In this document: positions 11,731 through 31,300 of the stretch, in pieces | Layout: every line of letters starts with the position of its first letter | How positions within the stretch are numbered: position 1 is the first letter of the stretch | Virus record (IMG/VR): IMGVR_UViG_3300027769_000001 | DNA: 64,000 nucleotides | Reading direction: 5' to 3' (one strand) | Origin: an uncultured virus (IMG/VR IMGVR_UViG_3300027769_000001) | Taxonomy: Duplodnaviria; Heunggongvirae; Uroviricota; Caudoviricetes | Notes under the pieces: model-generated | What the model saw: the letters and a program-made list of their open reading frames with translations, nothing else | Databases searched by the model: none | What the model was told of the DNA's origin: nothing | Program-made: the position numbers and the translations under genes

Positions 11731-12621
11731 ATGTCGGACTCCATCACTCAGTACCTAAACGACATTGCGAGACACCCAATCCTGTCCCGCGAAGCACAGC
11801 TACGCCACGCTTACCGCGTGCAGGCATGGGTCAACTACACACCACCAGGCGCCACCGAGCCCGACCGCACCGCCGCACCCCGCCACATCGTCCGAGCTGG
11901 CAGCCGCTCCCTTGATGTCATGGTGCGCACCAACCTGCGCCTCGTTGTCCATCTTGCCAAGCGCTACCAGAACCGAGGCCTCGACCTTTCCGATCTCATC
12001 CAGGAAGGCAGCTTCGGTCTCATCCGCGGCATCGAGCTGTTTGACCCAACCCGCGGCTACGCCTTCAGCACCTACAGCTACTGGTGGATCCGCCAGTCCA
12101 TCACCCGCGCCATCTACAACAGCTCCCGCACCATCCGCCTACCGATCAACGTTCAAGACCTGGTTGTCAAAATACGCCGCTTCATCAACGAATACACCGC
12201 AGTCCACGGCACGGCTCCCTCTATCACACTCATCGCAACCCACACCGACCTACCCCCCGAACGCATCACCGACGTTCTCCTTGCCACCTCCGTTACCGAC
12301 TGCGTCTCCATAGACGCGTTATGCATGCGCAACGAAGCCCCAATCTTGGAGGTCCTATCCGCCGCATCCCCAACAACGGCTGAATCCCCCGAACTTGACC
12401 TTTTCACCACCGAGCGCGACATCCTCCTGGAAAGGGCCCTGGTAAAGCTCCCCGAAACAGAGCGGCGTATCGTGCAGGTACTCCACTTCGAAAGCGGCAC
12501 TCTCCAGCAGCTATCCACCGAGCTCGGCATTAGCCGCCACCGCGTATCCACCATGTACAAGCACGCTCTCCAACGCCTCCGTTCGGAGCTCGTCTTTAAC
12601 TGGGACGTGTTTACTGAATAA
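11731..12621 (+). CDS. RNA polymerase sigma factor, RpoD/sigma70 family
   Basis: NLRLVV.LAKRYQNRGL...DLIQEG..GL...FDPTRGY.FSTY.YWWIRQSITRA; region 4 HTH. Confidence 0.93.
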   Translation: MSDSITQYLNDIARHPILSREAQLRHAYRVQAWVNYTPPGATEPDRTAAPRHIVRAGSRSLDVMVRTNLRLVVHLAKRYQNRGLDLSDLIQEGSFGLIRGIELFDPTRGYAFSTYSYWWIRQSITRAIYNSSRTIRLPINVQDLVVKIRRFINEYTAVHGTAPSITLIATHTDLPPERITDVLLATSVTDCVSIDALCMRNEAPILEVLSAASPTTAESPELDLFTTERDILLERALVKLPETERRIVQVLHFESGTLQQLSTELGISRHRVSTMYKHALQRLRSELVFNWDVFTE

Positions 12622-12625
12622 AGAC

Positions 12626-12820
12626 ATGAGTAAACATCCCATACGCCCCCTACGTTTTTATGAGATGTGGATGCTTCGCCTATTAGCGAGCAGTCCTCGT
12701 ATTGACAAAATTGTAGTTATACAGCACAACCCCAACGAAGAACTGCCCCCTATTAACACTAAAGAATACGTGATTCAAAGGTTAGAGCGCTTATATCACT
12801 CTGATTTCACAGACAGATAA
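12626..12820 (+). CDS. Hypothetical protein
   Basis: 64-aa ORF after the sigma factor. Confidence 0.5.
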   Translation: MSKHPIRPLRFYEMWMLRLLASSPRIDKIVVIQHNPNEELPPINTKEYVIQRLERLYHSDFTDR

Positions 12821-12878
12821 CGCGTACATATATATACATTTTTTCTCTACCAGGCCCCCGACATGTAGTACTAAGCCC

Positions 12879-12969
12879 AGTCTCACCTGAGACACAGGGC
12901 TGGACTCACGCGAGACTCAGTGAGACGCAAGTCACTCACATGAGACACATGAGACTCATCTGAGACACT
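12879..12969. repeat. Phased TGAGAC(A/T)CA repeat array
   Basis: Degenerate copies at 12888, 12901, 12911, 12921, 12931, 12941, 12950, 12961 (~10-bp period); inverted copy at 12879. Confidence 0.8.
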
Positions 12970-13287
12970 TGACCCCTCGCCCCGGCCGTGCCATACTGGG
13001 CTCACGCGCGCATGATGCGCGTTTCCTTCCCTCGTCTCACAGCCTCTCCGGCGGATTGCTTGACACATCGCCCGTTCTGTGCTCTACAATGGGGGGACCA
13101 ACCGGACCGGCGGCAGCCGCTCAACCGGACCGGTTGGTTGACAGGTCACCCGATCTGTGCATACAATGGGGGGACCCATCCAACCGGCCTGTAGAGCCTA
13201 GACCCCTGGTCAGCTCTCCCCGGGACGGGTGTGGCAACCCATCCCCCCTCCGGAGGGGTTGACAGGTCACCCGATCTGTGCAAACCT
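12969..13287 (+). promoter_or_regulatory. Four tandem sigma70-type promoters
   Basis: TTGACC-17-CATACT (12969), TTGACA-19-TACAAT (13060), TTGACA-18-TACAAT (13138), TTGACA-17-AAACCT (13259); shared TGTGC/GTGC before the -10. Confidence 0.75.
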
Positions 13288-13293
13288 AAATCA

Positions 13294-13953
13294 CGTCAAA
13301 CGACCTGAGCCTATGCGTTAAGTGCCTCTGATTGAGACGCGGCGGGATGCCGCGCAAACCTACTGATACAGGTGACGTGTGTCCCCTGGTCTCATCGCGA
13401 ATCCCTCCGCCTCAGGGCGCTTGGCGGCTAGCGAGCACAGAGACTGGATCGCACTGATCTGAATCGACCGATCCCCCCAGGGAAGGTAGCCAGAGTGTGG
13501 AGGGAGCTGCAATGCTCCTCCGTCAAAGGACGCGACGACGCCCTCGCAGGGAAAAAGCGCCCACACCAGCAGCCTCAGCCGTCAAAGCCAGTCACCCGTG
13601 AGGTGACCAAGGTGGACCCGCTGTGCTTGCTCCTATTCCGTAAGGCCCTCGGCGATGCGTATCTTCATCCTCTCCCCCCATCTCCGGGTAGAGCGTGAGA
13701 ACTTGAGAATCCCATACGTCAATGCGTGATAGCTGTGTCTCACAGCCGGTAACGCAGCACCTCTATGGGCCAGGTTCAGAGCGTCTTAGGTGGTACGGGT
13801 TAGGACAATACTGGGAAACATACTCCCGGCTAGGTGATACCTAGCAGCGGTCGCCGTGTGTCGACCGTGGCAATGGGCATAAGGCTCTGCCCAACACACC
13901 CAAACCATCTCTCCCAGAAGTTCCCCCTGGCGCACTGCGTCCGGGGGTCTTTT
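13294..13953 (+). ncRNA. Putative large structured non-coding RNA (~650 nt), family unassigned
   Basis: No convincing ORF; more than 10 hairpins including nested helices; lies between promoter array and terminator. Confidence 0.6.
13923..13953 (+). terminator. Intrinsic terminator
   Basis: CCCCCTGGCGCACTGCGTCCGGGGG hairpin followed by TCTTTT. Confidence 0.7.
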
Positions 13954-14005
13954 GGCTGAGGTGCTTTCACCTCTCCACCCTCAAGCTGTGCTCAGCATCC
14001 GACCT

Positions 14006-14299
14006 ATGTACCGCAACGCCTGGTTTCAAGGCCGCAACTCCCGCCGCCAACTCCCACCCGAGTGCGTCGCCGACTGCTCCGGCTCCGGTGACCGCACCGC
14101 CGATGTCGCCGCTTGGGTCCGCCGTCTCGACTTCGACGGCCCCGCCTGGCTTTTCCGCGAATACCTCCGCGAGTTCGGCGCATGGGACCGCTCTGACCTC
14201 TGCGACCACAACGCCAACCGCGAACGCGTCCTCTGGACGTGGGCCTGCAACTGCGCCGAAGAACCCGGCGCCTACGACTACCTCTATCTCGGAATCTGA
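14006..14299 (+). CDS. Hypothetical early protein
   Basis: C-ending codon bias; YLREFGAWD motif. Confidence 0.65.
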   Translation: MYRNAWFQGRNSRRQLPPECVADCSGSGDRTADVAAWVRRLDFDGPAWLFREYLREFGAWDRSDLCDHNANRERVLWTWACNCAEEPGAYDYLYLGI

Positions 14300-14301
14300 C
14301 C

Positions 14302-14505
14302 ATGCGCCCCGACTACGCCACCCCCGAGGACTTCGCCAAGTGGCGCGCCCACGCCGAAACCCTCGACACCCACGCCCTCAAATGGTCCATCGCTGACTGC
14401 CGCCAAGCAGCCCGCAACCTCCGCGACTTCAACCCAGTCCGCGAGGGCTACTACGAGGACCAAGCCTTCACCTACGCCGACGAACTCGCCCGCCGCTCCC
14501 GCTAA
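14302..14505 (+). CDS. Hypothetical early protein
   Basis: Tightly packed ORF; EGYYEDQAFTYADEL. Confidence 0.65.
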   Translation: MRPDYATPEDFAKWRAHAETLDTHALKWSIADCRQAARNLRDFNPVREGYYEDQAFTYADELARRSR

Positions 14506-14507
14506 CC

Positions 14508-14672
14508 ATGCTGACCTTCACCATCTCCTGGTCCAATCCCTCCGGCAAGTTCGGCTGGACCGACATCACCGAATGCGTCGACATGGAAGACGCCATAGAG
14601 CACTTCAACACCCACGTCCTAGGTGTGGAAACACCTGCCGACATCACCATCGACCGCATCCGCCGCCACTGA
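14508..14672 (+). CDS. Hypothetical early protein (54 aa)
   Basis: MLTFTISWSNPSG...; fills the gap exactly. Confidence 0.55.
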   Translation: MLTFTISWSNPSGKFGWTDITECVDMEDAIEHFNTHVLGVETPADITIDRIRRH

Positions 14673-14673
14673 C

Positions 14674-14958
14674 ATGACGCTAATCATCGACATCTGTTCC
14701 GGCACTGTGCTCGCCGCCGAGCACTGCGTTCTGGTCCCTGACGAGGCCCTAACCGAGGCCGAATGGGAGGAGCTCGACACCATGTCCGACAGCGAGGTGA
14801 GCGACCTCGCCCGAGAGCGTGGCCGCCCCGTCCTGCCCGAGACACAAGCCCTCGACGCCGTGGCGGAGTTGCTCTCCGCCGCGGACTGGTCATCCGACCA
14901 CATCGAAGCCGTGGCCGAAATGGTCCGGGCCACCGGCCGCACCATCGCCGACGTTTGA
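14674..14958 (+). CDS. Hypothetical acidic protein
   Basis: Tightly packed ORF. Confidence 0.6.
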   Translation: MTLIIDICSGTVLAAEHCVLVPDEALTEAEWEELDTMSDSEVSDLARERGRPVLPETQALDAVAELLSAADWSSDHIEAVAEMVRATGRTIADV

Positions 14959-14964
14959 CCCACC

Positions 14965-15666
14965 ATGCAGTACAACCCCAACGGCTACATCCTCTACGAG
15001 GGCCCCTCACCCATCGACGGCGCCCCGATCGTCTGCATCGTCACCGGTATCACCGACACCACCGACAACGGCAAGACCGGCGCGATGCTCCAAACCTGGA
15101 TCCTCCGCCAAGACATCGCCCCCAACGTCGGCTACCGCGACGGCTCCAACATCTCCGTCTGCGGCGGCTGCACCCACTTCGTCCAGAAAACCTGCTACGT
15201 CCTCTGGTACCAGGCGCCCCTCAGCGTCTGGAAGTGCTACAAGCGCGGCGGCTACGCCCCCCTCCCCAGCTACTCCGTCTTCACCGACCGCATCCTCCGC
15301 ATCGGCTCCGCCGGTGACCCCTTCTGCGTCCCCGAGCACGTCTGGCGCTCCGCCCTCCACGAGGTCGCCGGTCACACGGGCTACACCGCCCAATGGCGCC
15401 GCCCCGCCGCCCAGGGCTACCGCGAGTTCCTCCAAGCCTCGTGCCACGGAATGCGCGACTACCTCGACGCCACCGCCCACGGCTGGCAGCCCTACCTCGT
15501 AGTCCCCAAAGGTGAGCCCCTCCCCGCTGGTGTAACCCTTTGCCCCGCCTCCGAGGAAGCCGGTCACGCCACAACGTGCTCCGCCTGCCTCGCTTGCGAC
15601 GGCACCACCGGCGCTTACGGCATCCCCGCTCACGGCACCCGTGCCGCCTCCTTCACCTCTAAGTGA
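14965..15666 (+). CDS. Conserved Cys-containing phage protein (possible Fe-S/metal binding)
   Basis: NGKTGAMLQTWILR, CGGC..CY, LRIGSAGDP, HTGYT.QW, CPAS..CSACLACDG. Confidence 0.65.
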   Translation: MQYNPNGYILYEGPSPIDGAPIVCIVTGITDTTDNGKTGAMLQTWILRQDIAPNVGYRDGSNISVCGGCTHFVQKTCYVLWYQAPLSVWKCYKRGGYAPLPSYSVFTDRILRIGSAGDPFCVPEHVWRSALHEVAGHTGYTAQWRRPAAQGYREFLQASCHGMRDYLDATAHGWQPYLVVPKGEPLPAGVTLCPASEEAGHATTCSACLACDGTTGAYGIPAHGTRAASFTSK

Positions 15667-15667
15667 C

Positions 15668-15877
15668 ATGACTCCCCCACGTCCCTGCCACACCCGCACC
15701 CGTGCCACCCGCCGCCAGCGGTGGACCCAGCTCACCATCGAGCACGGCATCGGCTTCCTCTGCGGCCTGGCTCTAGCCGCCATGGCAATCGACTACGGCC
15801 GCCGCGAAGCTTCACCCACCCCGAAGTCCATCCCCTCTCACGCCGCCCGCACCCTCACCACCTACCCCGGCCCATGA
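15668..15877 (+). CDS. Small membrane protein
   Basis: Hydrophobic segment GIGFLCGLALAAMAI. Confidence 0.5.
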   Translation: MTPPRPCHTRTRATRRQRWTQLTIEHGIGFLCGLALAAMAIDYGRREASPTPKSIPSHAARTLTTYPGP

Positions 15878-16140
15878 GCTACCGCATCACCATCGACTTT
15901 GTCGATCCCGCCCCCGAGGTCGCCGCCCACCTCGTCCAGTTCGCCTACAGCGAAGACCTCCGCGTAGCCGTAATCCAAGCCGACGGTGCGGGCTACCGCG
16001 TCGTCTGGGACGCCCACGGCGACTTCGCCCCCCTATCCGACTACATCTCCCACTGCCTAGACGAGTGCCATGCACACATACAGGCCCACGCACCTGCATG
16101 GGCCGAAGCACACGCGCAGTATTTAGAGCTAGACGACTAG
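15874..16140 (+). CDS. Hypothetical protein
   Basis: ATGA overlap with upstream gene. Confidence 0.55.
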   Translation: MSYRITIDFVDPAPEVAAHLVQFAYSEDLRVAVIQADGAGYRVVWDAHGDFAPLSDYISHCLDECHAHIQAHAPAWAEAHAQYLELDD

Positions 16141-16145
16141 ATTCC

Positions 16146-16174
16146 TTGCGCTCTTCACGCAAACGTGCCAAACT
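16146..16174 (+). promoter_or_regulatory. Sigma70-type promoter candidate
   Basis: TTGCGC-17-CAAACT, sharing CGTGCCA.ACT with the 12969 promoter. Confidence 0.45.
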
Positions 16175-16194
16175 CCACCTGTTCCCTCACCCCT

Positions 16195-16533
16195 ATGCAA
16201 GTCCGCAACACCCGCACCTACAGCCCCACCGGCACCGTCGGCCGCCGCCTCTCCAAGGCCTACGCCGTCCAGCTCGAATCACAGCGCCTAACCGCCGAGC
16301 TCACCGCTCACCGCCAATGGCTCTGCACCCGCATGGTGCAGCTCAACATCGACCGCATCGAGCACGGCGACCTAGTCGTCACCCGCAAAGTCCGCCACAA
16401 CTGGACCTACACCCCCGAAACCGAGGCCGCCATGCTCGCCCTCCGCAAGATCCAAGACCGTGAGCAGGCCGAAGGCCTCGCCACCGACACCCCCACCACC
16501 TACGTCTCCCTCTCTTCTCGCTACCAGCCATGA
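16195..16533 (+). CDS. Hypothetical protein
   Basis: Strong C-ending codon bias. Confidence 0.6.
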   Translation: MQVRNTRTYSPTGTVGRRLSKAYAVQLESQRLTAELTAHRQWLCTRMVQLNIDRIEHGDLVVTRKVRHNWTYTPETEAAMLALRKIQDREQAEGLATDTPTTYVSLSSRYQP

Positions 16534-16724
16534 CCGACCTCACCCCCACAGAGCTCCACTACACCTGGGTTTCCATCGAGCGCTTCGGTGGCGGCTTCTG
16601 CGAACGCCTTGCCCGCGCCTGGTTCCACGGTGACGACCGCAACAAGGCGCGCCTGAATCAAGCCTTCGAGCACCTCATCACCGAGTTCGGGCCCGGATCG
16701 CGCTTCTACAGCATCGAGTCCTAG
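16530..16724 (+). CDS. Hypothetical protein
   Basis: ERFGGGF..RLA.AWF.GD..N..RL..AF motif of small phage proteins. Confidence 0.6.
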   Translation: MTDLTPTELHYTWVSIERFGGGFCERLARAWFHGDDRNKARLNQAFEHLITEFGPGSRFYSIES

Positions 16725-16727
16725 CCC

Positions 16728-16886
16728 ATGTACCAATTCACCTTTGCCCGCCTCACCACAACCTTTTACGCCGCCCTCATCCAGCGAGTCACAGTTACCG
16801 CCCCCAACAGCGTCGCCGCCTGGTCCATTTTCGAAGCCCTCTACCCCCCAAAACGCTTTGTCGCCTTCACCTGTTTCTATGGCTGA
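16728..16886 (+). CDS. Hypothetical protein (52 aa)
   Basis: MYQFTFARL...; fills the gap. Confidence 0.45.
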   Translation: MYQFTFARLTTTFYAALIQRVTVTAPNSVAAWSIFEALYPPKRFVAFTCFYG

Positions 16887-17136
16887 CTTCCCCCTGCCCA
16901 CCGTGCACCTGAACGGCACCGGCCGCAAGATGCTCAACGACGACTACACAGCCGCCTACTGCGCCCTGCAAACCGCAATCCGCGCCTTCCAAAGCATCGA
17001 GTTCCATGCCCGCGACTATTACACCCAAGGAGTGGACGCCTTCACCCGAGCCCGGCACCACCGCGACACCCAGCTGCAACACCTAGCTGGAGTGCAGCAC
17101 TACCTCGAAACCCACCTGGTGCACCTAGGCGAATGA
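16879..17136 (+). CDS. Hypothetical protein
   Basis: PTVHLNGT...FHARDYYTQG motif. Confidence 0.65.
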   Translation: MADFPLPTVHLNGTGRKMLNDDYTAAYCALQTAIRAFQSIEFHARDYYTQGVDAFTRARHHRDTQLQHLAGVQHYLETHLVHLGE

Positions 17137-17375
17137 ACGACCTCCACCGTCAGTCCTCTGTTCCCGACTACCCAACCCACGCCCACCAATTCGTAGTGGT
17201 CTTCTACGAAGACGGCCGCATCGACTACATGTTTGGCCCCTTTCCAACGAAAGCCGAGGCCGATACCTGGGCCCGCGCGTTCAACAAACGCTATGCCCGC
17301 GACGGCGAGCGTTGCCGCTACAGCCGCCGCACCATCTGCCCCGTCTGCGAAGCCCTCCCGCTCACGCCTCTATGA
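17133..17375 (+). CDS. Hypothetical protein
   Basis: ATGA overlap; FGPFPT.AEA..W. Confidence 0.55.
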   Translation: MNDLHRQSSVPDYPTHAHQFVVVFYEDGRIDYMFGPFPTKAEADTWARAFNKRYARDGERCRYSRRTICPVCEALPLTPL

Positions 17376-17396
17376 CTGACTACCGCAGGGGCAGCC

Positions 17397-17714
17397 ATGA
17401 CTGACCCCGCCTTCAACCTGGCCATGGTCCAGATCCACCCCAACTGGTACGACCTCCTCCCCCAAGTAGAGGCCGCCATGGCCGAGGACGCCCGCGTCGA
17501 AGCCCTCCGCTATGCCGCCGGCTGGGAAGCCGACGAAGGCGGCTGGTATTCCCACGACGGCACCCCCGAATCCGACTGGGCCGACGAGGGCCTCCCCTTC
17601 CCCGAGGACGTCGACACCTACACCGCCTGGCACAGCGCCTACTACCACTACGAGGCCCTAGACGTGGGCATCCCACAGCTAGACCCCTACCCCAACGCCC
17701 CGGCCACCGCCTAA
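17397..17714 (+). CDS. Hypothetical acidic protein
   Basis: Codon bias; D/E-rich. Confidence 0.55.
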   Translation: MTDPAFNLAMVQIHPNWYDLLPQVEAAMAEDARVEALRYAAGWEADEGGWYSHDGTPESDWADEGLPFPEDVDTYTAWHSAYYHYEALDVGIPQLDPYPNAPATA

Positions 17715-17775
17715 TCCCCCGGAGGGCTGCGCCTCCGTCATCAACGCAACCCAAACCCAACCGCACTTCACCTCT

Positions 17776-18849
17776 ATGCAGGCCTCACCCAACGCAGTCT
17801 CCACCGCCTACGCCTCCAACGGCACCGGCCCCATGGTCTACGGCCGCTACCGCGACCGCGGCTACGCCGTCAACCCTCTCACCGCCCAACTCGGCACCAT
17901 CGTCCCCGAGAACGCCTCCGCATCCGAAGCCTTCGCCATCGCCGGCCTCGACTGGACCGCAGACCAACGCCCCATCAGCTACATGGGCGCCGATGGCCCC
18001 GTCCAGTCCCCCGACCACTGCGCCATCGTCCGCAGTGACAACGACACCTGCCTAGGCATCCACGGCTCCGGCTACACCCCCGTCCAGAACAGCGCCCTGG
18101 TCAACCTGCTGGACTACCTCCGCGAAGACCTCAAGATCGAAACGGTCCTCTCAATCCGCGAAGGCCGCCGCGTCTTCGCCAGCGCCACCATCAACACCGA
18201 GGCCGAAGTCCTCCCCGGCGACAAAGTCCGCCGCTACCTCCACCTCTTCAACAGCCACGACGGCAGCTCCGGCTTCGGCGTCTTCTTCTCCGACGTCCGC
18301 CTGGCCTGCGCCAACCAGCTCAACTACCTCACCGGCCGCGCCGTCAACCAGGCCACCCTCGAAGGCCACGGACTGCGCCGCAAGCACACCAGTTCCGTCA
18401 CCGCCTTCGCCGAATCCCTCCCGAGCCTGATCGACCTCGAGCGCCGCAGCTTCTCCCAGTCCATGACCGAACTCCGCGCCCTCACCACACTCAAACTCAC
18501 CCCCGAGATCGCCCGCCGCATCCTCGAATCCACCTACTCCGACAAGCTGGACACCCCCATCCGCGACAAAACCACCAAGGACAAGCGCCCCCGCGAACTC
18601 AACGACCTCCCCGAGATCGGCACCATCCGCAGCCACTACTCCGGCACCACCGGCCTGGGCCTCGACATCCCAGGTATCCGCGGCACCGCCTACGCCCTCT
18701 ACAACGCCATCACCCAGTACGAAACCCACGACGCCGGCCGCAATAAGGACTCCACCGAGCGCGCCCGCGCCCGCCTCGAATCCCTCTGGGGCGGCACCAG
18801 CGCCAAGCGCATCGACCGCGCCCGCTCCGCCTGCCTTGCTCTGATCTGA
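17776..18849 (+). CDS. DUF932-family phage/plasmid protein
   Basis: AGLDW, YTPVQN, LFNSHDGSS, VRLACANQL, KHT, GTAYALYNAITQY. Confidence 0.85.
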   Translation: MQASPNAVSTAYASNGTGPMVYGRYRDRGYAVNPLTAQLGTIVPENASASEAFAIAGLDWTADQRPISYMGADGPVQSPDHCAIVRSDNDTCLGIHGSGYTPVQNSALVNLLDYLREDLKIETVLSIREGRRVFASATINTEAEVLPGDKVRRYLHLFNSHDGSSGFGVFFSDVRLACANQLNYLTGRAVNQATLEGHGLRRKHTSSVTAFAESLPSLIDLERRSFSQSMTELRALTTLKLTPEIARRILESTYSDKLDTPIRDKTTKDKRPRELNDLPEIGTIRSHYSGTTGLGLDIPGIRGTAYALYNAITQYETHDAGRNKDSTERARARLESLWGGTSAKRIDRARSACLALI

Positions 18850-18883
18850 TGTCCTCTACTCTTTTACCAGGTGCTCGCGCCCC

Positions 18884-19282
18884 ATGCCCATCCCTGACAC
18901 CCCTGAGGCGCTCTTCGAGCACTTGAGCAACAGCTCAGTGCGCGACATGTTCGCGAACTACGACCAGCTCAAACCGCGACACCGCAAGCTGATCGACGTG
19001 CTGCACACCGAGCTAACCAAAGGCGAGCTCAGCGATGCGGCCTTCATGGACTGCATCTGCTTCATCACCGTCCTCTGGCGCTGCTTCAACAACACCGCCT
19101 GCGTCCAGATCGACCGCCTCATCGAGGACAACAACGAGATCGACCCCGCCTGGATCCACCAGGCCCTCGAGATCGCCAAGGTCGCCCAGTTCGTGCACAC
19201 GCTGCTCAACGCCTATGACGCCGCCCCAGACCTCACAGAGCTGGCAGATGAAAGCACGTATCACCTGGACACCGACGCCTAG
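18884..19282 (+). CDS. Hypothetical protein
   Basis: 132-aa ORF with codon bias. Confidence 0.6.
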   Translation: MPIPDTPEALFEHLSNSSVRDMFANYDQLKPRHRKLIDVLHTELTKGELSDAAFMDCICFITVLWRCFNNTACVQIDRLIEDNNEIDPAWIHQALEIAKVAQFVHTLLNAYDAAPDLTELADESTYHLDTDA

Positions 19283-19377
19283 CCAGCCTGTCAGACTGGT
19301 TTAGCCGGTTGTTCCTGGGCGCCTGACGCCAGCCGGTCACTTCTGTTTTTCCTTCACGGTCCCGCCGCATCTTTGGC

Positions 19378-19563
19378 ATGGCTTCCCCTGCGTTCGCCTT
19401 GTACGACCTGTACAACACAGTGACTGGCGTCCCCCTGTACAGCACCTACGCCACCCCATCCGAGATCCTGGATGCAAACGCAAATCTCCGCTCCCGCGGG
19501 CTCATCAGCCGGTACTACCCCGCCGGCACCTTCCAAGCGCCTTCGCTACACACTCCTGTGTGA
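19378..19563 (+). CDS. Hypothetical protein
   Basis: 61-aa ORF. Confidence 0.45.
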   Translation: MASPAFALYDLYNTVTGVPLYSTYATPSEILDANANLRSRGLISRYYPAGTFQAPSLHTPV

Positions 19564-19737
19564 CGACGGCTATCTGCTGGCCTGCCACGGCCTCTGTGAC
19601 CACCCGATCACAGTGGTCCCCCGCCCCGAACTTGCTACAAGCTTCGTCCTCTGGACAACAGCTACCCAGCGTGCCATAGCCCTGCAAAAGCTCGGCTGGC
19701 AGCTAAAAGTCGTCCAGTTTTACCTTCCTACTCCTTA

Positions 19738-20121
19738 ATGGCTCGCGTTAACACCGACATCTACATCGACCTGATAGAACGCTGTGAGCGTCACTACGCC
19801 GCTCAAGGCTTCGTCAAATGGACGGACATAGCCACCGAGCTCGGCGTCTCCCGTCAACTAATCCTCAACAGAGTCCAGCGTGCTGTCTGCCACGGCCTGC
19901 TCACCTCTGCAGACCTAGACCGCTACCGCTCCGCGTCCAGTCGCCTGGCCGCCTCCCGCGCAAGCAAAGACATGCGCCGCGACAACCGCGCGTTGACCAT
20001 CACCGTCACCCTTACCCCCGACAACAAGGCCTGGTTAACGGAGGCCATTACAGCCCGCCCAGGCTCAACCCCATCGGACTTCATCAACACATCCCTAACC
20101 CAACTCCGAACCCATGCGTAA
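19738..20121 (+). CDS. Putative HTH DNA-binding protein
   Basis: WTDIATELGVSRQLI. Confidence 0.6.
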   Translation: MARVNTDIYIDLIERCERHYAAQGFVKWTDIATELGVSRQLILNRVQRAVCHGLLTSADLDRYRSASSRLAASRASKDMRRDNRALTITVTLTPDNKAWLTEAITARPGSTPSDFINTSLTQLRTHA

Positions 20122-20287
20122 CAGCACCTTTTGGACCGCCTGCGCCCGCTATTGTTCCGAGCTCGCTCCTGTAGTAGGCCCCCTACTTTCCGCTTCCGCG
20201 GACTTAGCGACCGCCATCGACCGCGCCGCCCTTACATCAGCTACAGACACTCCAGCACTACCTAAATCCAAGTCCAATCTCGACTGA
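20114..20287 (+). CDS. Hypothetical protein (57 aa)
   Basis: MRNSTFWTAC...; overlaps upstream stop. Confidence 0.45.
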   Translation: MRNSTFWTACARYCSELAPVVGPLLSASADLATAIDRAALTSATDTPALPKSKSNLD

Positions 20288-20292
20288 CGCGC

Positions 20293-20559
20293 TTGTCCAC
20301 CACCCCTCACATCGATCCCCTCTCCTTATCTGATGACGCATTCCTCGAGCGCGCCAGCGCCATGTGTGCAACCAAGATTCCTCACCTCAACCGCCAGGCC
20401 GCGGCCGCCCACCTTCGCCGCGGCCATTATCCAGGCTCCCCCTACCACTGCCCTCTCTGCGGTGACTGGCACACCACCACCTATGACCGCGCTCAATCCA
20501 AGCGCTTCTCCCGCCGTCTATCTCGCCTTCTTCGCGCCCTAAACAGGGCTGAACAATGA
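20293..20559 (+). CDS. Small zinc-ribbon protein
   Basis: C.TK...YHCPLCGDWHTT. Confidence 0.6.
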   Translation: MSTTPHIDPLSLSDDAFLERASAMCATKIPHLNRQAAAAHLRRGHYPGSPYHCPLCGDWHTTTYDRAQSKRFSRRLSRLLRALNRAEQ

Positions 20560-20720
20560 TTCACATCACATGCGACCACGGCTACATCGGCCCGTTCTGG
20601 TGGGTCAACAGCCAACCATCCGAGCGGCAATGGCTAGCCGACCGCTACTGGCAACTCTGGGGCACCTTCGGCATCGGCCGCGAAACCTTTCGCGTAGCTC
20701 TGGAGCCCCTCGATGACTAA
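20556..20720 (+). CDS. Hypothetical Trp-rich protein (54 aa)
   Basis: ATGA overlap; ends ALEPLDD. Confidence 0.55.
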   Translation: MIHITCDHGYIGPFWWVNSQPSERQWLADRYWQLWGTFGIGRETFRVALEPLDD

Positions 20721-21030
20721 CCCCATCACCCCACCGCCGGAGCTGGTGCAGCAGTGGCGAGGAAAAGCAGTAAGCAACCCCAAAGATACATTTTCACAGT
20801 CTCTTGCCACCCGCGCCGCCCAATGGGGGTCGGATCAAGAGCTGGAGGCGTGCTGTGAACTACTGGTAAAACAAGGGTTTGACTTTGTTGACGCCCTCCG
20901 CGCCGCCAGACGCCCCAAGCCGCCGAGTTTGAAGGAGCAGGCATTGGAGGCCATGCACCGCAATTGGAATCCACACAACAATGACGATTTCGCCACCATC
21001 GCACGCGCCCTGGAGGCCCTCGATGACTGA
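20713..21030 (+). CDS. ITPPPELVQQW-family protein, copy 1
   Basis: Paralogue of 21525..21872. Confidence 0.7.
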   Translation: MTNPITPPPELVQQWRGKAVSNPKDTFSQSLATRAAQWGSDQELEACCELLVKQGFDFVDALRAARRPKPPSLKEQALEAMHRNWNPHNNDDFATIARALEALDD

Positions 21031-21346
21031 CTACCGCGCACTGTGCGCCCGCATGGCTGACGAGCTGGATCATTACCGACAGCTCTTGATGGATGATCGC
21101 CGCGAAACTCATGCGTTGGCGACTGAAGCCCGCGCCGCCCTGGAGGCCCAGCCCGAGCCGGTGGCGCCGACGGACGAGGAGATTGAACAATGGGCGGACG
21201 CTGCTAAGGAGGTGCCCTTAGAAGAAATGGACCCCGAGGTTCATGGCTGGCGGAGATGCTTTACGGCCAAAGAGTTCAGCGAAACAATCCGTGCAGCCCT
21301 TGCCCGCTGGGGCACACCCACCAACAACATTAGTGAGGAGAACTAA
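21023..21346 (+). CDS. MTD(Y/F)RALCA-family protein, copy 1
   Basis: Paralogue of 21865..22221 (ARAAL.QP..PTDEE). Confidence 0.7.
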   Translation: MTDYRALCARMADELDHYRQLLMDDRRETHALATEARAALEAQPEPVAPTDEEIEQWADAAKEVPLEEMDPEVHGWRRCFTAKEFSETIRAALARWGTPTNNISEEN

Positions 21347-21351
21347 TTACC

Positions 21352-21513
21352 ATGAAAAGCCTTAACGACTACACAGCACTTGGCGCCATTGTCCTAGTGC
21401 TTTTACTGATGGTTGCAACAGCCTGGTGGTGGTTCCCCCAAAAGTGGCAGGCATGTGAACGGCTTTATGACAACAAGCCAGCGCAGGTCTTCTGCCTGCT
21501 AGCATCGAAGTGA
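21352..21513 (+). CDS. Small membrane protein (53 aa)
   Basis: LGAIVLVLLLMVATAWWWF transmembrane segment. Confidence 0.55.
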   Translation: MKSLNDYTALGAIVLVLLLMVATAWWWFPQKWQACERLYDNKPAQVFCLLASK

Positions 21514-21524
21514 GGAGAGTTTCG

Positions 21525-21872
21525 ATGGCTGATTCAATTACACCGCCGCCCGAGCTGGTGCAGCAGTGGTTGGCCGAAATCTGGCATGAAGGAACACCAG
21601 TTCGAGTTGCATTGAGCGACGAACACATCGCCACCCGCGCCGCCCAATGGGGCGCCGACCAACAACTTGCGGAAGATGCAGAATGGCTAGATCACAATGC
21701 ATTGAATGAACCGCATCTAAAGATTATTCCAATGGGTGAATCTTTGAAAGAGGCAATGCGCCCCAAGCCGCCGACGCGCAAGGAGCGAGCGTTGAAGTCA
21801 CTGGACGGACTAGCACTGCCTGACGACGCTTTTGAAACCATCCGCTTTGCGCTAGAGGCCCTCGATGACTGA
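21525..21872 (+). CDS. ITPPPELVQQW-family protein, copy 2
   Basis: Shared ATRAAQWG.DQ, RPKPP and ALEALDD; AGGAG upstream. Confidence 0.7.
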   Translation: MADSITPPPELVQQWLAEIWHEGTPVRVALSDEHIATRAAQWGADQQLAEDAEWLDHNALNEPHLKIIPMGESLKEAMRPKPPTRKERALKSLDGLALPDDAFETIRFALEALDD

Positions 21873-22221
21873 CTTCCGAGCGCTTTGCGCTGAGCTGCTG
21901 GCCAGCTACGAAGACACTTTTGTTATCTCGGAACCAAGCGACGATCCCTTGGTGCAACAAGCCCGTGCCGCCCTAGCCCAGCCGGATCCGCAGGGGCCGA
22001 CGGATGAGGAGCTGAAAGCTGCTTACTGGGAAGGGTTCAAAAACGCCGCACCATGCGGCGCCGATCAGAGCTGGCTTGCAGGGCTGCGAGCGGTTGCTCT
22101 CTGGGACCGCTCCGTCATTGAGCCAGATGGACCGGCTGTGCTTGGCAGCAGGGAACCGGTCTCTGTCACTGACCAGCCTACGCCCGAGCCGTCCTTGCTA
22201 AGTGGGGGCGGTCATGACTAG
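21865..22221 (+). CDS. MTD(Y/F)RALCA-family protein, copy 2
   Basis: Paralogous motifs shared with 21023..21346. Confidence 0.7.
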   Translation: MTDFRALCAELLASYEDTFVISEPSDDPLVQQARAALAQPDPQGPTDEELKAAYWEGFKNAAPCGADQSWLAGLRAVALWDRSVIEPDGPAVLGSREPVSVTDQPTPEPSLLSGGGHD

Positions 22222-22540
22222 CTACGCCCGCGCCGACCGCATACTTGACGAGTTTACCGAGGGCGCCTATCACGGAGGCCGCCACACCAGCATCCGCCAC
22301 GGCATCGCCGCCGTGCTTCGCCACCTGGCCGACACCGATGCTCAATACGGCGACATGGAGAGCTGGTACGGCGTACCAGCCCGCACCCTCGAAGACCTAG
22401 CCGACGCGCTTGAAGCCCCAAGCCCGCTGGAACGCGCCATGAAAGGCGACGCCACCGCCGCCAAGCAGTTCCTGCACGAGGCCGGTTTTACTGACAAACA
22501 GGGCCGCTGGCCTCCGCAGTACCAATCCACCCCCGAATGA
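22214..22540 (+). CDS. Hypothetical protein
   Basis: Overlapping operon ORF. Confidence 0.55.
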   Translation: MTSYARADRILDEFTEGAYHGGRHTSIRHGIAAVLRHLADTDAQYGDMESWYGVPARTLEDLADALEAPSPLERAMKGDATAAKQFLHEAGFTDKQGRWPPQYQSTPE

Positions 22541-22761
22541 ATTACCTCACAGGCCACAGCCAAGAAATCAAAGGACTGCTTGAAGCTCTTGGCATTGAGT
22601 GCAAAGGCGTCCTACGCATCTGCTTGATTGTTGAACCCGACCGCATTGTCCGACTTGAGCTGGAACGCCTAGTCACTGAAGACGAAGCAGCCGAGCTGAC
22701 AACTTGGATCTTGAAGCACAGCGTCAAAGCGGAGCAGCTCGATGAAGTGCCCGAAGTGTAA
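22537..22761 (+). CDS. Hypothetical protein
   Basis: ATGA overlap. Confidence 0.5.
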   Translation: MNYLTGHSQEIKGLLEALGIECKGVLRICLIVEPDRIVRLELERLVTEDEAAELTTWILKHSVKAEQLDEVPEV

Positions 22762-23086
22762 AAGTACCAGCACTCGGGTGACGTGTACGCAGCACCGAGG
22801 CAACGAAACCAAAAGGTACTGTCGTTGCCTTGACTGCGCGAAACGCTACATCACGATGGAGACGTACCTAGTTCCAGTGCGTGAAGTACACCCCAGGCAA
22901 ATTAAGCGCGGAGAGGACAATCATCTTTCCGTTTTGACAGAACAGAACGTGCGCGACATCCGCCGCCTAGCGCAAGACAACACCTACAAGGTGATAGCCA
23001 AACGGTATGGCATACACACATCCACGGTATACCGCATCGTCAAGGCGAAGCGGTGGTCCCACGTAACAGACACCCCAGTTTCCTAG
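22742..23086 (+). CDS. Zinc-ribbon plus HTH protein
   Basis: CPKC...RCLDC..RYITME (NrdR-like ribbon); YKVIAKRYGIHTSTVYRI..W.HV HTH. Confidence 0.7.
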   Translation: MKCPKCKSTSTRVTCTQHRGNETKRYCRCLDCAKRYITMETYLVPVREVHPRQIKRGEDNHLSVLTEQNVRDIRRLAQDNTYKVIAKRYGIHTSTVYRIVKAKRWSHVTDTPVS

Positions 23087-26517: not shown

Positions 26518-28335
26518 ATGGCTGCTCCTACTTCAGACAACTTCCGGAACGATGGTGCGTTAGTTAACGTTCTAACGGGCTTAGGTGTAGGAACCAAGGA
26601 CAAAACAATCGCCACATCCGTAGGCTTCCAGGCCTTACTTTCGGAAGCTGAACTCGAAGCTCTTTACATCAACGGCATCCCCCGCCGTTATGTCGACGCC
26701 ATCAGCGACGAGATCCTCCGCCACCAGACAACCCTGAAAATCGGTGGCGATGCCCAAGAGGACAGCGCCGATCTCCTCAGCCAATTCGAGCGCTTCCTCC
26801 AGGCCACGCAGTTTCACTTCGCGCTTTCCGAAGTCATCAAGCTGCAGCGTCTCTATGGCGGCGCCGGCCTCGTACTGCTCCTCGACGATGGCCTCCAACC
26901 TGAAGAGCCAGTCGATCCCGCTCGTCTCCGCGCTGTCAACGGTTACGTCCCCCTAAGTAGGCACGAGCTGATCCCCGAGGACGTTTCAATCACCGACTAC
27001 TCCCGTCCTTCGCACTACCGCATCACCACCAGCCAGCGACTCACTCCGGACCAAAACAGCAACTACGTCAACATCCGCATCCACCACACCCGGGTCGCTC
27101 GCTTCGACGGCTTGTTCCTTCCGTGGAACCTACGGTCCCGCAACACAGGCTGGGGCCAATCGGTCCTGCAGCTCATGTGGAACGCCTTCAAGCGCTACGA
27201 GACCGCCATGTCCGGCCTCGAGTCGATGACGTCTGACGCCGACATCTTCGTCCACAAGATCCCCGGCCTCTTCAACCGTGTCGCCGCTGGCAACGAAAGC
27301 GACATCCGCAAGCGCCTGGAGGCCAACAACCTCAGCCGCTCCGTCTACGGCGGCATGGTCGTGGACACCGAGGAGGACATCAACTTCCTCAACCGCGCCC
27401 TCAGCAACATCGCCACCGCCACCGACCCCTTCATCAAGGATCTTCAGGCTTCTACCGGTTGGCCCGCCTCAATCCTCATGGGGGACTCCCCCGGCGGCCT
27501 AGGCAAGGAAGGTCGCTTCGAAGAGCGTGTCTGGTCCTCCCTTGTCGAGCAGTGGCAGGAGGTCTACTGCCGCACCCCGATCACCGAGATCTTTAGCTAC
27601 ATCCTGGCGAGCAAGGAAGGCCCCACCCGAGGCCGTGTCCCTGAGTCCTGGTCCGTCCACTTCCCCAGTGTCTTTACAACGACTGACAAGGAGGCGGCCG
27701 AGCTCCACCAGATCATGGCCGCTTCCGACGCCCAGTACATCCAGCTGGGTGTGCTCAACGCTCTCGAGGTACGCGAATCCCGCTTCGCCGGCACCGAGTA
27801 CTCCATCGAGACGAACCTCAACGAGGCCATCACTGAGCAGCTCGTCGCCTCCACCGACGCCCAATTCCAATCCCAAATGGCGGGCTATGAAGCGCAGCTT
27901 CAGGCCACCCAAGAACCACTCGCTCCCCCCGAGGGCGAAACAGGCGGAATCCTTCCTGCCGAAGGCGAAGAAGCCCCACCCCGTGGTGATGCGCTTTACG
28001 CAGACGCCAGTGGCCTACGCATCCGCATCACCGCCCATAACGGCGACACGGTAGCCGGCCCGCTTGTCGGCCCCGATGGCCAACGCATCGACACCAGCGC
28101 CTCCGCCCCACTGCTACTGATCGGGCCACACCGCACCCGAGCCCGAAAGCTATACCGCGCACGCTTCACACTCGACGGCGCGCTTCACGACGGTCCCTAC
28201 ACCACCGGCTTCAACTCATTGCGCGCCGCCAAAGCTGCCGTTCAGCGCTTCTTCCCTGGTCAGAATGTGGCAGGGCTATCCGCCGTGCCCGAAACCGAGG
28301 CCGACACGTTCCGCGCCTACAACGAGGGCTACTGA
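26518..28335 (+). CDS. Portal protein (DUF1073-type) with C-terminal extension
   Basis: RLYGG, IHHTR..RFDG, GWGQSVLQ, P.SILMG.SPGGL, F.S.FTTTDKE.AE; follows TerL. Confidence 0.88.
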   Translation: MAAPTSDNFRNDGALVNVLTGLGVGTKDKTIATSVGFQALLSEAELEALYINGIPRRYVDAISDEILRHQTTLKIGGDAQEDSADLLSQFERFLQATQFHFALSEVIKLQRLYGGAGLVLLLDDGLQPEEPVDPARLRAVNGYVPLSRHELIPEDVSITDYSRPSHYRITTSQRLTPDQNSNYVNIRIHHTRVARFDGLFLPWNLRSRNTGWGQSVLQLMWNAFKRYETAMSGLESMTSDADIFVHKIPGLFNRVAAGNESDIRKRLEANNLSRSVYGGMVVDTEEDINFLNRALSNIATATDPFIKDLQASTGWPASILMGDSPGGLGKEGRFEERVWSSLVEQWQEVYCRTPITEIFSYILASKEGPTRGRVPESWSVHFPSVFTTTDKEAAELHQIMAASDAQYIQLGVLNALEVRESRFAGTEYSIETNLNEAITEQLVASTDAQFQSQMAGYEAQLQATQEPLAPPEGETGGILPAEGEEAPPRGDALYADASGLRIRITAHNGDTVAGPLVGPDGQRIDTSASAPLLLIGPHRTRARKLYRARFTLDGALHDGPYTTGFNSLRAAKAAVQRFFPGQNVAGLSAVPETEADTFRAYNEGY

Positions 28336-28336
28336 G

Positions 28337-31300
28337 ATGACCGCATCCAACACCACACCAGAAGGCTTCCGGACTGCGGCCTATCTCGCCACCCGCGCTC
28401 GCTTGGACGCCGCACGCAGCCGCAGCGGCAAAACCAACCGCAGCGTTGACTGCAAACCCCCCAACACCCAGTGCGGCGGCCGTTGCATCCCCCCTTCCTG
28501 GGACTGCCGCATCAAAGGCGAAGGCCCCGACCCTCACCTCCGCGCAGTCCGCACTGATCCAGTCAGCGGCCTAGCCAACATCGAGCGCGGCATCAAACGC
28601 ATCGGCAAAGGCCTCCGCAAAGGCAGCTTCTCCGAGATTGAAGGTGGCAAACGCGCCATCGTCCGCGGTGTCGTCAAGGCCACTCCAGGTGACATCCAAC
28701 GCAAAAAAGCCCTCCAAGCGCAGCTCGAGCGCCGCGCCGCAGGCATCGCACTCGGCCTGAGCATCGTCGGCTTCGGCTTGTTCAGCCACAACCAACTCAA
28801 GCGCGCACCGTTCTACCGCGACGGCGTAGGTCGCCGCATTGACGACGCCGTCTCCGCCGGCATCAACCGCGTACTGGACGCCACTCCTGGCATCGGAGCC
28901 CGCCGCGCTGAACGCCGCGCCGCTGCTGGTGCAGCAGGGATGGCAGCCACTGCCCGCGCCGCCACCACCGCCGCCAGCGGTCCCGAGACCCTTCGCAGCG
29001 GCCTACTCCGCACACCTACCGACCTAGAGCGCCGCTCCACCGAGTACGGCAACTCTCGCGTCCTGTTCAACCGCATCAGCAGTGTCGACATCGACGCCGC
29101 CAACCGCGGAACCAACCTCGAGACATGGCGCCAGACCAGCCTCGAGTCTTTCTGGGGCACCAAGCGCACCAACGCCGCCGGTCCCGGAGACGGCAGCACC
29201 TTCTCCGAGCCCGCCACCCACGAGTTCCTCTCCCGCCAGTTCGGCTTCCGCCTAGACCGTTACACGAATGACACACAAGTTCGCCGTGCCGTATCGACTG
29301 CGCTGACCCGCGAAGCCGTAAACCTCCAAGGTCTCGCACGGCAGCAGGGCGTCAACCTCAAAGACGCTGATGCGCGTAACGCGTTCTTGAATCGCATCGT
29401 GGGCCCCTCCACTGCGAACTTCCCCGCAGACGTGCGTGACCGCGCTGTCAAAAACCTCGATGACGTCCTAGGCAACCCCGTCAGCAAAGGACGCGAAGCC
29501 ACCATCAGCCGCAAAGAGCTGGCTGACCGTTACTACCGCGAAACGCGAGACGGCTTCGACCAGTACTTCGCCCGCATTGCTGATGAAGTCCGGCAAACGC
29601 CCGGCGTAGCCATGCCGAAGGAGCAACGCAAAGGCGGCTACGACAGTTTGATGATCAGCGCCAGGATCGGCCACTCCCGCTACCTCGCAGGTCGCCTCAA
29701 CAAAACCATCCCGAGCATGGGCCCCGGCGTCTCCGACGTGGTCGCCAAGGAGTACTTCGCCACCCAGGTGCAGAAGTCCAGCACGTTTTCGCTGTCTGAC
29801 CGCGAAGTTCGTGTCGCCGCTTCTGAGCTGGCTGGCCGCAACATCACCAGCATCGGCGAGGCCACCCAGTACCTCCAGTCCAACGGGTTCCCCCGCCTCG
29901 TCGCAGTGCAGCGTGCACCTTCCGCCGCCTCCGCTGGACTACGCAGCGCAGCATCTCTCACCAGCCGAGCACGCAGCATCATGGCTCGCGCCGGCAACGA
30001 GAACATGAGCCTCGAAGCCGCGTATCGTCAAGCCCGCGCCGAAATGCGCGGCGACGCCGCTGACCTACCTCCACGGGTCGCCGCTTACTTGCAGACCCGC
30101 AACGACTTCGTCGCAGGGAAGAAAGGTCAGGGAAAGCCCTGTGGGGAGAGCCACATCCCCAAAGCGCATGAGTGCAACATTGGCAAAGGCAAAACGGCAC
30201 CCCCCGAGGGCGGTAATCGATCAAACACCGGTGCAAAGGTGGCCGTGGCGGCTGCCCTTGTGGGTGCTGCTGCCCTAGGTGGGCGTGCAGCCTTCAAGAA
30301 CAGGCAGAATATACCTATGTATAAAAACGCTGCTAAATATGTAGACACGGGCATTAAGACAATGTCTTCGACTAAAGTGCGTAATGCTATTAGTAAACTA
30401 CCTACAAAATTCCAAGAACCTGCCAACAAGCTAGTCGGTAAGGCTAAAGTGGGGTTAGCTTTTGTTGCAGCTGACGCGCAGGGCATGAAGCTGACCAAAG
30501 TTGACCCTATCAACAACTTCAGCACGTTCAAAAACCCCACAACGGGTCACGTTATGAGCGTAGGAGCGGTAGACGATACACTTGTGACCTTTGTGTCTAC
30601 TCCGAGCGGCAAAGCAGGCGCCTTTGACAAGTTTGGTATTGCGTTTCAGACAGACCTTAGCTTCGATCAAAAAGAAGGACTCAGCAAAGCACAGGGCTTA
30701 GCCGTCTCTAAACAAGTTAAGTCTATGTTTAGTGCACAACTAGACGAAATGCCTGAGAATGCTGTGCTTTTCAACAACCCCTATAAAGATGATGGATTAG
30801 GTGACAAGCGTAGTGCTATTTACAAGCGCTTCAAGTTCACAGAACTCCCAGGCGTGCGGGGCGGCAACATGTGGGCGCTCAAAAACCAAGGCAAACTGAC
30901 CAAAATCCCACCTGAGCAAGCTGACTACGTGGCAAAGCTCATCCGTGGCGATGCCGAAGACACCCGGATTGACCTCAAATGTGGTAAAGGTTCCATCTCC
31001 GAGGGCGAAAAATGTACAAAAGGTGCCGCCACTAAGGTAAATCCTAATGCGGCAGCTTCCAATCGCAAACTTGCCGTAACCGCAGCGGCAGCCGGAGCAG
31101 TAGCTTTAACTGCTGCTCTAACTGCTAAGAGCTGGACACCAGCAGTTCAACGTATATGGGATAATGCCCGCGTTGTAACCCCTAAAGACGCTACTTATTT
31201 AACTGAGGGCCGTAGTGGTAAAGTCTGGCTGTCTAACGATAACAAGTTTGTAATAAAAACCAGTAAAGGAAAAGTGAACATGAAAAAGTTCACTAACGAA

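Follow-up and report, generated by a model that had tools for sequence, protein, structure and literature searches.

Genomic Setting

The window (the whole 64,000-nt stretch of DNA analyzed) comes from a tailed phage that encodes a DNA polymerase, a primase, an RpoD-like sigma factor, a terminase, a portal and tail proteins, and it is a freshwater siphovirus of Synechococcus type. The best phage match of the sigma factor is in Synechococcus phage S-CBS3 (36%), and the second early gene is nearest to cyanophages S-2L and S-SRM01; because these two proteins are closest to cyanophage proteins, the host is probably a picocyanobacterium. From the genome collection came a single binned phage contig, a chance match, and no host. 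Three complete relatives are 66-72 kb long, with one match to the element described here in each.

A non-coding stretch (13294-13963) lies downstream of four tandem promoters, with the sigma gene on one side and, from 14006 on, an array of small early genes on the other (Table 1). The first gene of the array has no match in PHROG or Pfam. Across 14006-23086 the small early genes, which include a DUF932 gene at 17776-18849, are shuffled in order and content among relatives. Further along, kinase-like domains (RIO/ABC1, APH/Kdo) occur in two genes among the head genes (28265-31777 and 35124-36566), one of them forming the end of a 1170-aa protein that adjoins the portal. The four promoters reported by a first-pass annotation of this DNA were recovered as promoter-like repeats at 12969, 13060, 13138, and 13259, two of which (2/4) passed a consensus scanner. 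Upstream of them, 12823-12968 holds an AT-rich motif followed by three 17-nt repeats, kept in relatives, which is a possible origin or protein-binding array.

Table 1. Positions in the window of the element's parts and of the genes on either side.
Feature	Position	Strand	Remarks
RpoD-like sigma factor gene	11731..12621	+	phrog_351, E 2.5e-57; used to fetch relatives
Promoter-like repeat P1	12969..12997	+	Block kept in relatives
Promoter-like repeat P2	13060..13090	+	Spacing less canonical
14-bp inverted repeat	13097..13138	+	At predicted start of P2 transcript; local fold z -4.3
Promoter P3	13138..13167	+	11/12 consensus bases
Promoter P4	13259..13287	+	Predicted start near 13294, from spacing
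Minigene Met-Arg-stop	13313..13321	+	
First hairpin after minigene	13338..13354	+	Such a hairpin follows the stop in most classes
Core domain I	13365..13663	+	Closing helix 13365-69/13659-63
Core domain II	13668..13805	+	Helices 13668-71/13802-05 and 13678-83/13788-93
Four 3′ hairpins	13812..13892	+	Last two common to many allele classes
Long interrupted hairpin	13906..13963	+	23 bp; z -4.4
First small early gene	14006..14299	+	Head of shuffled small-gene array

Coding Capacity and Folding Energy

The stretch is as poor in open reading frames as had been noticed at first sight, the longest ATG-initiated frame in the core being 36 aa, and it lacks the C-ending codon pattern: C makes up 0.27, 0.32, and 0.34 of the three codon positions in 13322-13905, compared with 0.58-0.80 at position 3 in the flanking genes (4/4 genes). 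Indels between alleles are not divisible by three in 8/9 allele pairs, and substitutions are spread evenly over codon positions.

The case for structure in the window by itself was more mixed. Of 13 stems listed in the first-pass annotation, 12 pair as written and one (13499-507/13514-21) is off in register; the number is unremarkable, with 9.1 ± 3.2 expected by chance and 15/100 shuffles as high. Two of the stems, 13446-51/13469-74 and 13783-88/13801-06, do not hold in L099, a close relative, and their bases pair elsewhere. Over the whole 660 nt the folding energy is lower than in shuffled sequence on the plus strand (z -2.9, reached by 0/20 shuffles; z -1.3 on the minus strand), but this comes mostly from the 3′ end, and the core alone gives z -1.5. 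Windows of 120 nt over 13380-13859 range from z -1.2 to +0.9. Core energies in the window's own allele class, F, are z -1.5, -0.1, and +0.6; in most classes they are no better than shuffles, and only class A and class G cores score below z -2.8. Minimum-energy folds of the window proved misleading as a guide to long-range pairs. Reading frames and energies are insufficient for the claim of a structured RNA, and relatives were therefore needed.

Relatives, Allele Classes and Swapping

Relatives were gathered by protein and pattern scans, and the loci from one of these were checked by DNA alignment. We counted 48 distinct cassettes, defined by a callable promoter and a 3′ anchor. Eight unrelated loci among the 14 of one scan, L197, three unrelated loci (L202, L205, and L207) from a scan of 10, and L200, which lacks both anchors, were left out; a further 12 contigs from one scan had no match to the 3′ anchors. 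Pattern scans added no class F members beyond five contigs found before. No DNA match to the window occurs among 50,697 phage records, and L050 as query gave only 22-32-nt matches at E 0.8.

A promoter block and a 3′ element are present in 48/48 cassettes, and between them the cores can be sorted into eight mutually non-alignable classes, assigned through BLAST clustering and reading: A (13 cassettes), B (7), C (15, in three divergent subgroups), D (3), E (1), F (the window type; 6 cassettes spanning just two or three lineages), G (2), and H (1). Profile searches found no core common to all classes; they linked A, D, and E by the first ~55 nt and a 3′ motif only, and class F to no other class.

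The classes are scattered across the sigma-gene tree. L032 and L040 have sigma genes 99.3% identical, yet carry classes D and B, while the sigma genes of L026 and L048 are 53.6% identical, yet their class C cores are 96.9% identical. More generally, horizontal spread has placed cores of 94-100% identity in very different backgrounds. In L032/L040, L019/L020, and L049/L050, the 3/3 different-class pairs having both flanks, alignment is lost just past the minigene and regained at the 3′ hairpins. The downstream small genes are shuffled without any tie to class. From these sequences, at least eight unrelated RNA classes are exchanged in one slot and move independently of the neighboring gene.

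Some cassettes have additional parts. L007, L140, L155, and L204 (classes A and C) carry a ~65-nt hairpin module between duplicated flanks, before the long hairpin. The distant, class C-like L200 has the same layout with a diverged long hairpin, and in it a ribosome-binding motif precedes a short frame that has a stop but no ATG. L196 is a class C cassette on a 3.4-kb contig that was binned with Myxococcota but is probably a phage piece placed there in error.

Such turnover raises the question of folded modules, ribozyme-like or relics, that are selfish or close to neutral and exploit a recombination hotspot between conserved flanks with no benefit to the phage. The near-identity of cores across unlike backgrounds and the whole hairpin modules inserted in L007, L140, and L155 would fit. 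We consider this improbable, however, given that the slot is filled with several hundred bases in 48/48 cassettes, that the 3/3 complete records hold a single copy per genome, that no mobility gene linked to the cassette and no match to an intron or ribozyme family was found, and that differences between alleles preserve the fold, as described below.

Comparative Support for the Fold

In the comparative model (Table 1), domain I holds arm P2 (13377-13454) and a multibranch P3-P6 (13463-13656), while the helices of domain II close a nested arm at 13699-13777. The window and L099 differ by 40 substitutions in 481 columns. Their consensus energy is z -4.2 on the plus strand and -1.4 on the minus strand, relative to position-shifted nulls in which changes retain their type and spacing; 0/25 nulls reach the plus-strand value. 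Plus-strand consensus energies are z -8.1 for class A and -3.1 for class B, and three sigma-gene pairs of like divergence, used as controls, gave z -0.16, +0.94, and -0.49. Of 12 core pairs that differ between the window and L099, nine are kept (five by two-sided change) and three are broken.

The more distant L003 showed helices absent from the minimum-energy fold of the window. Six of seven anchor-placed helices pair fully in it and the remaining one pairs at 5/6, the per-helix chance being 0.13, 0.05, and 0.02 for 4, 5, and 6 pairs, with ±1 register freedom for test and control alike; these helices were found by inspecting the very sequences tested, which represent two or three independent lineages. 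In the four helices with both arms changed, chimeric arms of window and L003 fail to pair in 8/8 combinations, and at 13668/13805 the window, L099, and L003 have three different paired sequences. L003 also has an equivalent, of other sequence, of the hairpin after the minigene, and its 3′ hairpins have three pairs changed on both sides, two on one side, and 0/23 broken. A covariance model from window-like alleles alone, with L003 left out, aligns L003 and L006 end to end (44 and 40 bits), L003 over the full 211 positions.

The comparative model has an energy of -239.7 kcal/mol, 26 kcal/mol above the minimum of -266.0. A pair count on three distinct close sequences was not significant (56/500), and because lineages are few, no formal family-wide covariation statistic is given. 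Two-sided changes were counted, with no tree behind the counts, at 24/107 predicted pairs in class A and 27/59 in class C. Comparison of the sequences shows a multi-domain fold with long-range helices that is under selection on the plus strand. In addition, a hairpin with one short loop motif (13883-13890 in the window) is found again at the 3′ end in most classes, in some cases in two copies, and is a candidate protein-binding site.

It could be asked whether selection acts at the level of RNA at all. DNA hairpins for injection or replication would be compatible with the ordinary folding energy of the core and with the AT-rich and repeated motifs directly upstream, and small proteins could be hidden in the stretch. 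Both are very unlikely, since the preservation is strand-specific and runs through G-U pairs, since indels break the frame and substitutions are even over codon positions, and since the stretch is present in RNA runs.

Presence in RNA Runs

Six RNA runs (metatranscriptomes) contain sampled words of the stretch. Four of these, from four studies, were examined; they were chosen for containing it, and the data are contigs only. Run X1, possibly from the same campaign as the window, has a single contig of 781 nt, with zero differences over 13126-13906, and runs X2, X3, and X4 of other studies contain contigs from related alleles, located within 13379-13827. No contig covers 13907-13981 or 12706-13107. 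The X1 contig stops at 13906, where the long hairpin begins, an end seen as a contig in a single study and not counted as evidence. These contigs speak for presence in RNA libraries only, not for strand, ends, or level, and DNA carry-over is possible.

Comparative evidence and contigs in RNA runs together bear out the first-pass suggestion of a large RNA at the head of the early transcript, in the form of a multi-domain and uncatalogued one; that it is a free-standing product we infer.

The Minigene

The first ATG past the last promoter meets a stop within two codons in 43/48 cassettes, as compared with 15/215 other ATGs and 141/1999 shuffles. The minigene is present in 15/17 leader clusters (<70% identity), and no p-value is claimed because clusters share descent. 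All three stop codons are used, and codon 2 is His, Arg, Ser, Asn, Val, Asp, Cys, or itself a stop. Of the five exceptions, two (L098 and L118) show a start-stop at their second ATG and three (L155, L204, and L156) show none; the match in L102 is doubtful because its promoter call is doubtful. Purine-rich ribosome-binding motifs lie 8-10 nt upstream of the minigene in L043, L050, L079, and L193. A comparison of the initiation context with that of the phage's genes, using a weak matrix, gave p 0.09, and accessibility of the minigene showed no pattern common across classes. The conserved start-stop is an observation, from which translation of the minigene, and a purpose for it, may be presumed.

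Two-codon minigenes are known elsewhere. Such a minigene can act in cis, possibly shielding RNA from cleavage, and in axe-txe mg2 and EHEC LEE1 a start, one codon, and a stop likewise stand in a leader (PMC8708949). Those act on a protein gene a few codons away, whereas here the next protein gene is ~690 nt off. The lambda bar minigene acts by codon-dependent tRNA sequestration, whereas codon 2 varies here.

A possible helix 13316-26/13416-26 would pair codon 2 and the stop of the minigene with 13416-13426, crossing helix 13389/13444. It is formed at 11/11 pairs in L099. A pairing of this kind could be a switch and would suit a cis-acting leader of the early operon that tunes read-through, pausing, or mRNA stability, as in put-like antitermination or attenuation, the RNA never being a product of its own. 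Such a role would also agree with the position of the element between promoters and genes, on one strand and with no promoter-like repeat after it, with the left end of T7/T3, where an RNase III site comes after tandem host promoters (PMC3276506), and with boxA-like motifs in this region in some relatives. We nevertheless regard a leader of this type as unlikely, if worth serious attention. The switch helix is missing in L003 and has 2/11 pairs broken in L139, the window has no boxA-like motif here, and eight non-alignable cores serve the same shuffled operon, for which the shared ends alone could do a cis job.

The 3′ Element

The first-pass annotation placed a terminator at the end of the stretch, and this did not survive comparison: its hairpin is the inner part of the longer hairpin at 13906-13963, and its U run is the 3′ arm of that covarying hairpin. 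Across cassettes, 99.0% of 508 cells in the long hairpin and the preceding one are paired, with six two-sided pair changes (0/500 shuffles). In five cassettes (L031, L049, L050, L079, and L193) a tRNA-like cloverleaf replaces the long hairpin (L049:4860-4990 and L050:5790-5920, for example). It has a T-arm, no CCA, and a long arm where the anticodon arm would be; its acceptor-like stem changes on both sides between phages, the three examples folded have z -4.2 to -5.8, and ARAGORN did not call it as a tRNA.

RNase III sites commonly comprise about two helical turns of interrupted duplex. The 23 pairs over 13906-13963 fit that size, and we take the long hairpin and the cloverleaf each to resemble a substrate of a host maturation nuclease. 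Cyanobacteria possess RNases E, J, III, P, and Z (PMC10989914). Because two unlike nuclease-substrate-like structures share one position, processing is favored over termination, and hairpin 13906-13963 is the likelier to be an RNase III-type processing or 3′-end signal, a proposal made from sequence.

With an intrinsic terminator, the whole locus would be a stand-alone small operon of minigene and RNA, closed by a leaky terminator at 13923-13953, with the early genes reached by read-through. The window does have a GC-rich hairpin followed by four U, and canonical terminators account for only a minority of transcript ends in cyanobacteria (PMC12642595), which leaves room for weak ones. We think this arrangement improbable, given that the U run is base-paired to, and covaries with, the upstream arm and is interrupted in L003 and L204 with most pairs kept, that the scanner made no call there, and that a cloverleaf takes the place of the hairpin in five cassettes.

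Known RNA Families and Similar Systems

None of 4227 Rfam families gave a match at gathering score in the window or in 18 related loci, in agreement with the first-pass view that the RNA may be new. At lower stringency, 12600-14100 had three chance matches only (E 0.75-6.5), and 13 loci had nothing at E ≤ 5. No Rfam or ARAGORN match was found to group I or II introns, RNase P, tmRNA, 6S, SRP, or known ribozymes, and ARAGORN found no tRNA genes in the window or in 12/12 loci. Kinship with GOLLD or ROOL, raised at first on grounds of size, was not borne out: their models gave no match at gathering score in the window, none at E ≤ 10 in 12600-14100, and none in the 18 and 13 related loci.

No boxA motif was found in this region of the window. 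BoxA-like motifs occur in 12/209 loci, of other classes, among them L102, L048, L090, L112, L118, L119, L130, and L151, as well as L156, where they lie in the leader at 712-723, 882-893, and 1075-1086. Two of the L156 motifs are identical to a cyanobacterial rRNA spacer boxA (PMC8461337), which suggests that class G perhaps borrows rRNA antitermination.

GOLLD and ROOL are phage RNAs found near tRNAs, described as of unknown function (PMC12286853, PMC5737381), including after their structures were solved (PMC12286853). The present element resembles them in being phage-borne, several hundred nucleotides long, and folded with multiple junctions, and the tRNA-like cloverleaf that ends some relatives recalls their tRNA neighbors. 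Unlike them, it heads an early operon behind a minigene and comprises at least eight interchangeable classes, not one family. By size and fold it belongs with the large ornate RNAs in the working sense of non-coding RNAs of several hundred nucleotides whose multi-junction fold is kept by compensatory change; the discrete, abundant transcript also expected of that kind is here a prediction.

The early region of T7/T3 (promoters A1-A3, RNase III site R0.3) offers a parallel in layout, with tandem host-type promoters, an untranslated stretch, and a long hairpin before the first early gene (PMC3276506). The element differs in its conserved minigene and in a selected fold of ~500 nt exchanged between phages, and cleavage is here a prediction. 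The T7 leader is not known to hold such an RNA. The long non-coding RNAs of staphylococcal phage K are likewise several hundred nucleotides long and expressed from an early promoter, and they are abundant and described as of unknown function (PMC9241854). Those RNAs are tRNA-linked and belong to another host and phage group, and the likeness is one of description.

Literature searches, with supplements partly covered, found no paper on this element. The main text of one preprint (10.64898/2026.10.21.760802) contains neither "cyanophage" nor "Synechococcus," and six motifs of the element are absent from supplement files 3-6 of PMC10690425, among whose unnamed candidates parts of it may be. We conclude that the feature is real: a group of large RNAs, undescribed in the literature covered, carried in an exchangeable cassette.

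A Proposed Role in Early Infection

Our preferred reading, held tentatively and at somewhat short of even confidence, is an exchangeable RNA gene that is released from the early transcript and acts on the host. Host RNA polymerase would start at the tandem promoters of what looks from sequence to be a T7-like early unit, and a ribosome would initiate at the Met-X-stop minigene ~19 nt from the last start and terminate at once. The minigene would then most likely shield the 5′ end from 5′-end-dependent decay, or dock the RNA on ribosomes, while the next ~490 nt, as the comparisons show, fold into two domains via long-range helices. A host nuclease may cut the long hairpin at 13906-13963, or the cloverleaf, and so free a stable RNA of ~600 nt from the early mRNA. 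In the first minutes of infection the freed RNA could act in trans against a host factor, as its decoy or as a scaffold; position and turnover are what point to trans action on the host. Phages trade unrelated RNAs in the slot, as they do the small early proteins behind it; the trading itself is seen in the alignments, and its role in this scheme is conjectural.

A bolder version of the released, host-directed RNA is possible but rather doubtful. According to it, the cassettes would form an arsenal of unrelated large folded RNAs, serving as RNA-only effectors of host takeover or anti-defense under diversifying selection, and each would be delivered by one standard cassette of promoters, ribosome-capping minigene, and nuclease release signal. 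If true, the slot would be the RNA counterpart of the hypervariable early-protein array, and each class would be a new large RNA family.

The locus provides natural swap experiments, in the form of near-identical phages that differ at the slot in this RNA alone, and it offers at least eight new folds between fixed flanking signals that can be mutated separately. A cassette of minigene plus release site would be a compact means of stable RNA expression in cyanobacteria. Should the RNAs turn out to act on the host, they would add a class of RNA effectors to the conflict between picocyanobacteria and their phages.
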